From Escherichia coli (GTDB lineage Bacteria; Pseudomonadota; Gammaproteobacteria; Enterobacterales; Enterobacteriaceae), in NCBI RefSeq assembly GCF_003334815.1, contig NZ_QOWO01000014.1: a stretch of DNA of 64,000 bases, one strand, 5' to 3'. The notes below the pieces were generated by a model. That model was not told the DNA's origin. It saw only the letters and a program-made list of their open reading frames with translations, and made no database searches. The stretch's first letter is position 1; each line of letters opens with the position of its first letter. This document shows, piece after piece, positions 11,644 to 61,236 of this stretch. The position numbers and the translations under genes were made by a program.

Positions 11644-12510
<867 letters not shown>

Positions 12511-12564
12511 CGGCGAGCCGGATACGCCGCAAACGTCGTATCCGGCATTATCACATCAGCGCAT

Positions 12565-14934: not shown

Positions 14935-16251
14935 ATGGGAAACACATCAATACAAACGCAGAGTTACCGTGCGGTAGATAAAGATGCAGGGCAAAGCAGA
15001 AGTTACATTATTCCATTCGCGCTGCTGTGCTCACTGTTTTTTCTTTGGGCGGTAGCCAATAACCTTAACGACATTTTATTACCTCAATTCCAGCAGGCTT
15101 TTACGCTGACAAATTTCCAGGCTGGCCTGATCCAATCGGCCTTTTACTTTGGTTATTTCATTATCCCAATCCCTGCTGGGATATTGATGAAAAAACTCAG
15201 TTATAAAGCAGGGATTATTACCGGGTTATTTTTATATGCCTTGGGTGCTGCATTATTCTGGCCCGCCGCAGAAATAATGAACTACACCTTATTTTTAGTT
15301 GGCCTATTTATTATTGCAGCCGGATTAGGTTGTCTGGAAACTGCCGCAAACCCTTTTGTTACGGTATTAGGGCCGGAAAGTAGTGGTCACTTCCGCTTAA
15401 ATCTTGCGCAAACATTTAACTCGTTTGGCGCAATTATCGCGGTTGTCTTTGGGCAAAGTCTTATTTTGTCTAACGTGCCACATCAATCGCAAGACGTTCT
15501 CGATAAAATGTCTCCAGAGCAATTGAGTGCGTATAAACACAGCCTGGTATTATCGGTACAGACACCTTATATGATCATCGTGGCTATCGTGTTACTGGTC
15601 GCCCTGCTGATCATGCTGACGAAATTCCCGGCATTGCAGAGTGATAATCACAGTGACGCCAAACAAGGATCGTTCTCCGCATCGCTTTCTCGCCTGGCGC
15701 GTATTCGCCACTGGCGCTGGGCGGTATTAGCGCAATTCTGCTATGTCGGCGCACAAACGGCCTGCTGGAGCTATTTGATTCGCTACGCTGTAGAAGAAAT
15801 TCCAGGTATGACTGCAGGCTTTGCCGCTAACTATTTAACCGGAACCATGGTGTGCTTCTTTATTGGTCGTTTCACCGGTACCTGGCTCATCAGTCGCTTC
15901 GCACCACACAAAGTCCTGGCCGCCTACGCATTAATCGCTATGGCACTGTGCCTGATCTCAGCCTTCGCTGGCGGTCATGTGGGCTTAATAGCCCTGACTT
16001 TATGCAGCGCCTTTATGTCGATTCAGTACCCAACAATCTTCTCGCTGGGCATTAAGAATCTCGGCCAGGACACCAAATATGGTTCGTCCTTCATCGTTAT
16101 GACCATTATTGGCGGCGGTATTGTCACTCCGGTCATGGGTTTTGTCAGTGACGCGGCGGGCAACATCCCCACTGCTGAACTGATCCCCGCACTCTGCTTC
16201 GCGGTCATCTTTATCTTTGCCCGTTTCCGTTCTCAAACGGCAACTAACTGA
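14935..16251 (+). CDS. fucP: L-fucose:H+ symporter (MFS)
   Basis: 438-aa ORF MGNTSIQTQSYRAVDKDAGQSRSYIIPFALLCSLFFLWAVANNLNDILLPQF... Confidence 0.92.
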   Translation: MGNTSIQTQSYRAVDKDAGQSRSYIIPFALLCSLFFLWAVANNLNDILLPQFQQAFTLTNFQAGLIQSAFYFGYFIIPIPAGILMKKLSYKAGIITGLFLYALGAALFWPAAEIMNYTLFLVGLFIIAAGLGCLETAANPFVTVLGPESSGHFRLNLAQTFNSFGAIIAVVFGQSLILSNVPHQSQDVLDKMSPEQLSAYKHSLVLSVQTPYMIIVAIVLLVALLIMLTKFPALQSDNHSDAKQGSFSASLSRLARIRHWRWAVLAQFCYVGAQTACWSYLIRYAVEEIPGMTAGFAANYLTGTMVCFFIGRFTGTWLISRFAPHKVLAAYALIAMALCLISAFAGGHVGLIALTLCSAFMSIQYPTIFSLGIKNLGQDTKYGSSFIVMTIIGGGIVTPVMGFVSDAAGNIPTAELIPALCFAVIFIFARFRSQTATN

Positions 16252-16283: not shown

Positions 16284-18059
16284 ATGAAAAAAATCAGCTT
16301 ACCGAAAATTGGTATCCGCCCGGTTATTGACGGTCGTCGCATGGGTGTTCGTGAGTCGCTTGAAGAACAAACAATGAATATGGCGAAAGCTACGGCCGCA
16401 CTGCTGACCGAGAAACTGCGCCATGCCTGCGGAGCTGCCGTCGAGTGTGTCATTTCCGATACCTGTATCGCGGGTATGGCTGAAGCCGCTGCTTGCGAAG
16501 AAAAATTCAGCAGTCAGAATGTAGGCCTCACCATTACGGTAACGCCTTGCTGGTGCTATGGCAGTGAAACCATCGACATGGATCCAACCCGCCCGAAGGC
16601 CATTTGGGGCTTTAACGGCACTGAACGCCCCGGCGCTGTTTACCTGGCAGCGGCTCTGGCAGCTCACAGCCAGAAAGGCATCCCAGCATTCTCCATTTAC
16701 GGTCATGACGTTCAGGATGCCGATGACACATCGATTCCTGCCGATGTTGAAGAAAAACTGCTGCGCTTTGCCCGCGCCGGTTTGGCCGTCGCCAGCATGA
16801 AAGGTAAAAGCTATCTGTCGCTGGGCGGCGTTTCGATGGGTATCGCCGGTTCCATTGTTGATCACAACTTCTTTGAATCCTGGCTGGGAATGAAAGTCCA
16901 GGCGGTGGATATGACCGAACTGCGTCGCCGTATCGATCAGAAGATTTACGACGAAGCCGAATTGGAAATGGCACTGGCCTGGGCTGATAAAAACTTCCGC
17001 TATGGCGAAGATGAAAATAACAAACAGTATCAACGTAATGCCGAGCAAAGCCGCGCAGTTCTGCGCGAAAGTTTACTGATGGCGATGTGTATCCGCGACA
17101 TGATGCAAGGCAACAGCAAACTGGCCGATATTGGTCGCGTGGAAGAATCACTTGGCTACAACGCCATCGCTGCGGGCTTCCAGGGGCAACGTCACTGGAC
17201 CGATCAATATCCCAATGGTGACACCGCCGAAGCGATCCTCAACAGTTCATTTGACTGGAATGGCGTGCGCGAACCCTTTGTCGTGGCGACCGAAAACGAC
17301 AGTCTTAACGGCGTGGCAATGCTAATGGGTCACCAGCTCACCGGCACCGCTCAGGTATTTGCCGATGTGCGTACCTACTGGTCACCAGAAGCAATTGAGC
17401 GTGTAACGGGGCATAAACTGGATGGACTGGCAGAACACGGCATCATCCATTTGATCAACTCCGGTTCTGCTGCGCTGGACGGTTCCTGTAAACAACGCGA
17501 CAGCGAAGGTAACCCGACGATGAAGCCACACTGGGAAATCTCTCAGCAAGAGGCTGACGCTTGCCTCGCCGCTACCGAATGGTGCCCGGCGATCCACGAA
17601 TACTTCCGTGGCGGCGGTTACTCTTCCCGCTTCCTTACCGAAGGCGGCGTCCCGTTCACCATGACTCGTGTCAACATCATCAAAGGCCTGGGACCGGTAC
17701 TGCAAATCGCGGAAGGCTGGAGCGTGGAATTGCCGAAGGATGTGCATGACATCCTCAACAAACGCACCAACTCAACCTGGCCAACCACCTGGTTTGCACC
17801 GCGCCTCACCGGTAAAGGGCCGTTTACGGATGTGTACTCGGTAATGGCGAACTGGGGCGCTAACCATGGGGTTCTGACCATCGGCCACGTTGGCGCAGAC
17901 TTTATCACTCTCGCCTCCATGCTGCGTATCCCGGTATGTATGCACAACGTTGAAGAGACCAAAGTGTATCGTCCTTCTGCCTGGGCTGCGCACGGCATGG
18001 ATATTGAAGGCCAGGATTACCGCGCTTGCCAGAACTACGGTCCGTTGTACAAGCGTTAA
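16284..18059 (+). CDS. fucI: L-fucose isomerase
   Basis: 591-aa [39 protein letters not shown]... Confidence 0.92.
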
Positions 18060-18167
18060 TACATTACTCCCTGATGTGATGCCCGGTCGCTCCGGCTACC
18101 GGGCCTGAACAAGCAAGAGTGGTTAGCCGGATAAGCAATGTTATCCGGCTATATTGCAGGAGCGATT

Positions 18168-19586
18168 ATGAAACAAGAAGTTATCCTGGTACTCGACTGT
18201 GGCGCGACCAATGTCAGGGCCATCGCGGTTAATCGGCAGGGCAAAATTGTTGCCCGCGCCTCAACGCCTAATGCCAGCGATATCGCGATGGAAAACAACA
18301 CCTGGCACCAGTGGTCTTTAGACGCCATTTTGCAACGCTTTGCTGATTGCTGTCGGCAAATCAATAGTGAACTGACTGAATGCCACATCCGCGGTATCGC
18401 CGTCACCACCTTTGGTGTGGATGGCGCTCTGGTAGATAAGCAAGGCAATCTGCTCTATCCGATTATTAGCTGGAAATGTCCGCGAACAGCAGCGGTTATG
18501 GACAATATTGAACGGTTAATCTCCGCACAGCGGTTGCAGGCTATTTCTGGCGTCGGAGCCTTTAGTTTCAATACGTTATATAAGTTGGTGTGGTTGAAAG
18601 AAAATCATCCACAACTGCTGGAACGCGCGCACGCCTGGCTCTTTATTTCGTCGCTGATTAACCACCGTTTAACCGGCGAATTCACTACTGATATCACGAT
18701 GGCCGGAACCAGCCAGATGCTGGATATCCAGCAACGCGATTTCAGTCCGCAAATTTTACAAGCCACCGGTATTCCACGCCGACTCTTCCCTCGTCTGGTG
18801 GAAGCGGGTGAACAGATTGGTACGCTACAGAACAGCGCCGCAGCAATGCTCGGCTTACCCGTTGGCATACCGGTGATTTCCGCAGGTCACGATACCCAGT
18901 TCGCCCTTTTTGGCGCTGGTGCTGAACAAAATGAACCCGTGCTCTCTTCCGGTACATGGGAAATTTTAATGGTTCGCAGCGCCCAGGTTGATACTTCGCT
19001 GTTAAGTCAGTACGCCGGTTCCACCTGCGAACTGGATAGCCAGGCAGGGTTGTATAACCCAGGTATGCAATGGCTGGCATCCGGCGTGCTGGAATGGGTG
19101 AGAAAACTGTTCTGGACGGCTGAAACACCCTGGCAAATGTTGATTGAAGAAGCTCGTCTGATCGCGCCTGGCGCGGATGGCGTAAAAATGCAGTGTGATT
19201 TATTGTCGTGTCAGAACGCTGGCTGGCAAGGAGTGACGCTTAATACCACGCGGGGGCATTTCTATCGCGCGGCGCTGGAAGGGTTAACTGCGCAATTACA
19301 GCGCAATCTACAGATGCTGGAAAAAATCGGGCACTTTAAGGCCTCTGAATTATTGTTAGTCGGTGGAGGAAGTCGCAACACATTGTGGAATCAGATTAAA
19401 GCCAATATGCTTGATATTCCGGTAAAAGTTCTCGACGACGCCGAAACGACCGTCGCAGGAGCTGCGCTGTTCGGTTGGTATGGCGTAGGGGAATTTAACA
19501 GCCCGGAAGAAGCCCGCGCACAGATTCATTATCAGTACCGTTATTTCTACCCGCAAACTGAACCTGAATTTATAGAGGAAGTGTGA
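18168..19586 (+). CDS. fucK: L-fuculokinase (FGGY family)
   Basis: ORF track starts at 18138, but that ATG lies inside an intercistronic hairpin; ATG 18168 has a CAGGAG SD and gives [19 protein letters not shown]... Confidence 0.88.
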
Positions 19587-20799: not shown

Positions 20800-20842
20800 C
20801 GGAAAGGGTAGCAGGCCGGAGACGACGCCCCGGCCTTGCCTG

Positions 20843-25685: not shown

Positions 25686-25735
25686 GCACAGAACCGGGTC
25701 GGATAAGACGTTCGCGTCTCATCCGACCTGATTGT

Positions 25736-26595: not shown

Positions 26596-26693
26596 GCCTG
26601 ATGCGCTACGCTTATCAGGCCTACATAACTCCTGCAATATTTTGGATTTGCATGATTTGTAGGCCGGATAAGGCGTTCACGCCGCATCCGGCA
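26596..26693. repeat. Pair of REP elements (BIME-like) in the tcdA-mltA gap
   Basis: gcctgatgcgctacgcttatcaggcctac (26596..26624) and gtaggccggataaggcgttcacgccgcatccggca (26659..26693), classic REP palindromes in opposite orientation. Confidence 0.7.
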
Positions 26694-53116: not shown

Positions 53117-53147
53117 GATTAACGCCGGTTAAAACCGGCGTTAAATA

Positions 53148-59378: not shown

Positions 59379-59499
59379 AACAAACTCCAGATAAGTGCTT
59401 TTTTATGATTACGCCACATCATAAAAAGAATAAAAAATATCGATTTATGTCGAGTCTATGCAAAAATGATATGGATTACCGGATTGCGAGAGAGCGCTA

Positions 59500-61203: not shown

Positions 61204-61236
61204 AAAAAAGGGCCGGATGTACAGCACATCCGGCCC
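61204..61236 (-). terminator. Rho-independent terminator downstream of araE
   Basis: Minus strand gggccggatgt-gctgt-acatccggccc followed by TTTTTT. Confidence 0.65.

Follow-up and report, generated by a model that had tools for sequence, protein, structure and literature searches.

In the fucPIKUR operon of E. coli, the junction between fucI and fucK (~18060-18170) carries two hairpins that are, in all likelihood, a decayed BIME composed of two inverted REP units with their feet facing each other. Positions are those of the window, the whole stretch of 64,000 nucleotides of E. coli DNA that was analysed, and are converted to K-12 NC_000913.3 coordinates by an offset of +2,919,300. Overall, the explanation that we consider probable is an eroded BIME followed by a fucK start at 18168, with the hairpins inferred to act as a stabiliser or attenuator. 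The feature is real but ordinary, being a decayed member of the best-known E. coli repeat family. The original prediction, made from the sequence of this junction, had missed that the hairpins are REP/BIME-derived and are no structure made for fucK.

Layout and folding of the fucI-fucK spacer

The fucI stop codon TAA (18057..18059, plus strand) opens a spacer of 108 nt (18060-18167). Hairpin 1 (18081..18108) is a decayed REP unit with the REP on the minus strand and the iREP on the mRNA strand. Its stem has 7 bp (GCCCGGT/ACCGGGC, 18081-87 with 18098-18104) and encloses the loop region CGCTCCGGCT, with a 2-bp GC/GC step and a UCCG loop inside the stem. Beyond the 7-bp stem there is a 1x1 internal mismatch, the canonical REP bulge is absent and the foot is CCTGA (CCTGAAC) where a REP has CCTAC. 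The hairpin sequence cccggtcgctccggctaccggg that had been predicted in the spacer was found at 18082-18103, and the real stem extends over 18081-18104. A linker (18105..18123, plus strand) follows; here the GTAG foot of the second unit has mutated to GTTAG (18121-18125). Hairpin 2 (18122..18151, plus strand) is likewise a decayed REP unit, of the Y type, which has undergone an internal deletion and forms a perfect 11-bp palindrome, TAGCCGGATAA/TTATCCGGCTA, that pairs 18124-18134 with 18141-18151 around the loop GCAATG. The perfect hairpin predicted at 18125..18150 is thereby present and one pair longer. The fucK Shine-Dalgarno sequence CAGGAG (18157..18162, plus strand) begins 5 nt past hairpin 2 and lies 5 nt upstream of ATG 18168, the start to which the original prediction had assigned it; its GGAG is invariant in a 12-species alignment and its anti-SD duplex has an energy of -6.6 kcal/mol. 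The fucK CDS occupies 18168..19586 on the plus strand and encodes 472 aa, as annotated.

Folding of the RNA from 18057-18185 gave -46.4 kcal/mol with z = -4.3, and the spacer core by itself gave a fold z of -5.4. Folded separately, hairpin 1 and hairpin 2 had energies of -17.4 and -16.7 kcal/mol, respectively. Perfect stem-loops of at least 10 bp are rare, with six distinct ones in the 64-kb window compared to 0.97 ± 1.0 in dinucleotide shuffles. As none of 200 shuffles of the 18057-18185 RNA was equally stable and long perfect stem-loops are this infrequent, the structure goes beyond chance. An outer helix predicted around hairpin 1 (18063-69/18117-23) was rejected as the common T18065G variant breaks it with no compensation. 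A scan of 17500-18700 with Rfam 15 at E values up to 10 produced two chance-level matches to eukaryotic families (E 7.8 and 9), both of which miss the hairpins; one of them runs over the stop codon of fucI and ~18 nt into the spacer. Other perfect stem-loops of at least 10 bp in the window were located at 11653-11677, 53119-53144, 59400-59427 and 61210-61236, and the last of these (GGGCCGGATGT...ACATCCGGCCC) is REP-arm-like.

Probable REP and BIME ancestry of the hairpins

Comparison of the junction across species showed a bimodal distribution of spacer lengths, at 50-57 nt and 93-125 nt. In ~25 of 43 species the spacer is long and holds an iREP...CCTAC - linker - GTAGG...REP pair, a typical intact pair being GCCCGGTGGCGCAAGCTTACCGGGCCTAC - linker - GTAGGCCGGATAAGCGCAGCGCCATCCGGC. 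Most genomes of Citrobacter, Klebsiella and Salmonella have such an intact pair between fucI and fucK, and so does R. planticola. When aligned with these intact pairs, the E. coli hairpins correspond to them column by column, with an internal deletion of 5-7 nt in hairpin 2, and the fuc pair is positionally homologous to the intact BIMEs of the sister genera. The positional homologue of hairpin 1 is the GCCCGGTGGCGCAAGCTTACCGGGCCTAC unit of Citrobacter and Klebsiella, and unit 1 is closer to this GCCCGGT type than to the Y and Z REPs of E. coli. The outer arm of hairpin 2, GCCGGATAAG, has the same sequence as that of the Y-type REPs of E. coli.

A covariance model (R1) was built from 34 REP units, all taken from non-Escherichia spacers, and was searched against the window. 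The true REPs in the window are the pair of the tcdA-mltA BIME, at 26596-26624 on the minus strand (36 bits, E 3.4e-05) and 26659-26692 on the plus strand (33 bits, E 0.00013), together with those at 25697-25731 and 12513-12546. Hairpin 2 was matched at 18122-18149 on the plus strand with 18.7 bits (E ~0.08), the fourth best match in the window, and hairpin 1 at 18081-18108 on the minus strand with 12.5 bits (E ~1.3), within the top seven. Both matches are weak, with scores about half of those of true REPs, but they lie on opposite strands with their feet facing a linker of 13-19 nt, which is the Citrobacter/Klebsiella layout. With E values of ~0.08 and 1.3, the sequence by itself would not suffice to call either hairpin a REP.

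In several respects the pair resembles the REPs (Y, Z1 and Z2) and BIMEs of E. coli. It is extragenic and lies in a 3' spacer between tandem genes, here bounded by the stop codon of fucI and the start of fucK. Its units are GC-rich palindromes with GCCGGAT.../...ATCCGGC arms, and the two are inverted, separated by a short linker and have facing feet, as in a BIME. However, it differs from them in other features. The GTAG/CTAC foot is absent from both units, which have the mutated forms GTTAG before hairpin 2 and CTGAAC after hairpin 1, while the spacers of relatives retain GTAGG and CCTAC feet. The stem mismatch or bulge of REPs is also missing, as unit 2 has no inner stem or mismatch bulge and is now a perfect 11-bp palindrome, and hairpin 1 has no canonical bulge. 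The linker sequence is not conserved with relatives and matches neither the L linker with an IHF site of BIME-1 nor the S linker of BIME-2, and inspection of 18100-18125 by eye on both strands showed no IHF site or WATCAA-type core. Binding of TnpA-REP requires a GTAG foot and a stem mismatch (PMC3333891). Since the GTAG/CTAC feet and the stem mismatch of unit 2 have been lost, the fuc pair is a relic and no longer an active REP/transposase substrate. In addition, a search of ~5425 E. coli genomes showed the exact spacer sequence in a single copy per genome, unlike true REPs, and it is thus not an active repeat.

Insertion sequences in the spacer of natural isolates provided a further line of evidence. 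In strain BH100 (L056 1069-2500), a 1432-bp IS1397-family element is inserted in hairpin 2 with a GTTA duplication, 14 nt from the start of the hairpin 2 arm. IS1397 is reported to have REPs as its specific insertion targets (PMC1525189). Five other distinct IS1397 sites, from six E. coli strains (L057-L062), were all at the apex of a REP hairpin. The sites sampled lay 13-14 nt from the first base of a GCCGGAT or GCCTGAT arm with duplications of 3-4 bp, and the spacing looks to be measured from the arm and not from the loop. As the BH100 insertion is at this canonical distance, the IS1397 transposase treated hairpin 2 as a REP; hairpin 2 is the only one of the two hairpins found as an IS1397 target. 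In strain 13KWH46 (L055 170-1500), the loop of hairpin 1 is interrupted by an IS3-family element of 1331 bp, flanked by a CTCCG duplication. From its terminal repeats this element looks IS2-like, and it is not known to be REP-specific. Since it is not IS1397, it was left out of the evidence for REP identity. Both insertions should separate fucKUR from the fucP promoter.

A total of 355 REP elements are curated in K-12, with the REP/palindromic unit classes Y, Z1 and Z2 as defined in PMC3333891. REP203 (K-12 2931813) and REP207 (2950580) flank the region, and REP204-206 fall between them; the fuc hairpins (K-12 2937381-2937451) could be one of these. In the copy of the K-12 RefSeq record that was used, not even a true BIME carries a REP feature, so that a missing feature at the fuc spacer is uninformative. 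Two other REP-like hairpins were observed near the fuc operon. The convergent xni(ygdG)-fucO spacer has a perfect 10-bp hairpin GCCGGATACG/CGTATCCGGC at 12513-12551 (K-12 2931813-2931851), which scored 14.1 bits with the REP model and is listed as REP203 and as a mapped convergent-transcription terminator (bioRxiv 10.64898/2026.03.23.713779, supplementary table). The convergent fucR-rlmM spacer has a GC-rich hairpin GCAGGCCGGAG...CCCCGGCCUUGC at 20806-20842 (K-12 2940106-2940142) with 18.9 bits, level with fuc hairpin 2. It is listed as a mapped terminator of the fuc operon and does not carry a REP name (bioRxiv 10.64898/2026.03.23.713779).

Start codon of fucK

FucK almost certainly starts at ATG 18168, giving a protein of 472 aa. 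This start is already known, as it is the accepted RefSeq, UniProt and K-12 annotation, and the downstream start favoured in the original prediction is thus the existing curated one, here supported by homology, the Shine-Dalgarno sequence and accessibility. Every RefSeq genome that was examined, including K-12 (NP_417283.2), has the fucK start at the equivalent of window position 18168 with 472 aa by PGAP/RefSeq. At least 1000 contigs carry the 472-aa form, which is UniProt FUCK_ECOLI, and 45 contigs from older records or submissions have the 482-aa form. In a tblastn search of 43 enterobacterial genomes, FucK homology set in exactly at the first residue of the 472-aa protein, and an alignment of 12 representative spacers showed little or no variation in GGAG, ATG and AAACAAGA. 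The solved FGGY kinases 4c23, 6k78 and 2itm have 3-7 residues ahead of the position aligned to FucK residues 3-8. With the start at 18168, the N-terminal FGGY beta-strand and DxGxT motif are at most ~10 residues from M1.

A real long ORF, with FucK starting at ATG 18138 (482 aa), is extremely unlikely. In its favour, no stop codon interrupts the frame from 18138 onwards, and the 482-aa protein is annotated in some older GenBank records. ATG 18138 (18138-40) is indeed the first in-frame ATG and lies in the loop of hairpin 2, as had been predicted, but an in-frame TAA (18132-34) precedes it by 2 codons and it has no Shine-Dalgarno sequence. A search across 43 loci showed no conserved upstream in-frame fucK start, and E. 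albertii has ATA where E. coli has ATG 18138, with no other upstream start. The 10 added residues are unmatched in homologues and in the solved structures. In addition, opening of the 30-nt initiation footprint would cost ~19.6 kcal/mol at 18138 compared to 7.4 kcal/mol at 18168, and anti-SD pairing is -3.3 kcal/mol at 18138 compared to -6.6 kcal/mol at 18168. In a longer-context fold, the fucK Shine-Dalgarno sequence was only ~18% unpaired, so that it is left free only in a relative sense. Overall, ATG 18138 is a spurious start that the loop sequence happens to contain. It is enclosed by an 11-bp stem, has no usable Shine-Dalgarno sequence and is absent in E. albertii. The 472-aa annotation of FucK is right and the 482-aa form of older records should be retired.

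Dedicated control of fucK translation, in which hairpin 2 or its pairing with hairpin 1 would tune access to the Shine-Dalgarno sequence or uncouple fucK from fucI, is improbable. The hairpin 2 stem ends 5 nt before the Shine-Dalgarno sequence, which is partly paired in the ensemble, and an alternative 8-bp pairing between the hairpins exists (18091-98 with 18124-31). However, E. whittamii and all short-spacer species have the same Shine-Dalgarno sequence and start without hairpin 2, and the alternative pairing simply reflects the remaining complementarity between REP and iREP, as a BIME would show. Moreover, no ligand- or protein-binding motif was found in the spacer and neither hairpin had an Rfam match.

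Possible effects of the hairpins on fuc expression

We consider it nearly an even call that the hairpins act as an mRNA stabiliser, a transcription attenuator or both. The eroded BIME still folds in the fucPIKUR mRNA as two independent hairpins of about -17 kcal/mol each. By analogy with known intra-operon REPs, these could block 3'-to-5' exonucleases, in which case the fucP-fucI segment would outlast the fucKUR segment, and they may also cause partial, Rho-assisted termination into fucKUR. Either effect would yield more FucI than FucK, FucU and FucR from one promoter, while the fucK Shine-Dalgarno sequence, 5 nt beyond hairpin 2, would stay usable.

The malE-malF REP is an intra-operon REP stabiliser/attenuator. 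[quoted passage not shown] The fuc pair is similar to both in having stable hairpins right after the upstream cistron of a polycistronic mRNA, and upstream stabilisation with partial read-through would be expected of it; in uninduced cells, fucI counts are above the roughly equal counts of fucK, fucU and fucR. However, REP325 has 12 units, whereas the fuc spacer has only two short decayed hairpins. The role suggested in the original prediction, stabilisation of the upstream mRNA or modulation of fucK translation, would plausibly fit the published intra-operon REPs. In RNA-seq, counts per kb were 972 for fucI, 612 for fucK, 660 for fucU and 575 for fucR (bioRxiv 10.64898/2026.03.23.713779). The step from fucI to fucK is ~1.6-fold in cells that were uninduced and pooled over mutant strains, and lies at the spacer; it is no more than suggestive of a stabiliser/attenuator.

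In the same data fucP (14935-16251), which is promoter-proximal to fucI (16284-18059), had lower counts, with 171 compared to 972 counts per kb for fucI, or ~5.7-fold fewer in the pooled uninduced cells (bioRxiv 10.64898/2026.03.23.713779). This gap could be due to selective stability of the fucI segment or to an internal promoter.

An intrinsic (Rho-independent) terminator that ends the fucPI transcript is very improbable. In Raoultella, Enterobacter 10-1 and Symbiopectobacterium, a GC hairpin followed by a T-run does occur at this place. However, the E. coli sequence continues with CCTGAACAAG after hairpin 1 and TATTGCAGG after hairpin 2, and since neither hairpin has a T-run, they do not constitute an intrinsic terminator. 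A promoter/terminator scan found nothing in the spacer, and the downstream genes rely on the fucP promoter of the fucPIKUR operon (PMC11894529).

The hairpins could instead be a neutral relic, a dead BIME left over from selfish DNA with no effect on fuc expression, that persists by being harmless and by the preference of REPs to enter or remain in 3' spacers. We regard this as a substantial possibility, appreciably short of an even one. The defining REP features have decayed, and the presence of the units varies among close relatives, E. whittamii having hairpin 1 only and C. sedlakii a unit-2-like REP only. As each of these two species has one unit, neither hairpin is indispensable. IS elements occur in the spacer of natural isolates, and a search of the literature on the fuc operon and REPs found no functional data (3'-end, half-life or reporter) on the fucI-fucK spacer. 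REPs accumulate in 3' spacers anyway, so that their recurrence at this junction could reflect insertion bias and not selection. However, hairpin 2 is now a perfect palindrome, and in the window and 8 Escherichia sequences (E. coli, divergent E. coli, Escherichia sp. and E. albertii) none of its 22 stem positions was variable compared to three of six loop positions (Fisher p = 0.006). The two substitutions in the arms of hairpin 1 (O157:H7 and L007) each yield a G.U pair and so preserve pairing, and species in which REPs are lacking have a stable hairpin of unrelated sequence in this position. The spacer is also at least 99% identical in 4935 of 5425 E. coli genomes, and in E. albertii it is 98.1% identical compared to 93-94% in 600 nt of flanking coding sequence.

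A stable fold (z < -2) was found in 42 of 44 enterobacterial spacers, with a median z of -4.4. The hairpins are non-homologous between lineages and consist of REP pairs, single REPs or terminator-like hairpins with T-runs. The terminator/attenuator hairpins of Raoultella, Enterobacter, Kluyvera and Symbiopectobacterium are located as in E. coli, likewise have a GC-rich stem (8-13 bp) and precede the same Shine-Dalgarno sequence and start. However, they are not REP-related and several have a T-run, which E. coli does not have. It is conceivable, if rather doubtful, that the junction has been under long-term selection for some stable stem-loop, filled by non-homologous elements in different Enterobacteriaceae. 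If this were true, the Escherichia hairpin would be a domesticated REP remnant, a perfect palindrome beyond REP transposase binding, and it would set the FucI:FucK ratio and with it the level of fuculose-1-phosphate, the inducer of FucR. The junction would then show a mobile REP turning into a fixed structural element. The comparison makes fucI-fucK a suitable natural system in which to ask whether selection retains intra-operon REPs for stabilising mRNA or attenuating transcription.

Finally, two further types of spacer were observed in the survey. Short spacers of 51-54 nt in Enterobacter sp. 10-1 (L024), Raoultella terrigena (L026), Raoultella sp. (L042) and Symbiopectobacterium (L045) contain a non-REP GC hairpin followed by 5-7 T, a terminator-like element that lies mid-operon and directly before the fucK Shine-Dalgarno sequence. 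C. amalonaticus (L013, 183-nt spacer) and Citrobacter sp. MGH106 (L046, 118-nt spacer) have a long, AT-richer palindromic insert that is neither REP-like nor terminator-like, an example from the latter being ctgcaggacaaaaacacattagcatttttgtcctgcag.
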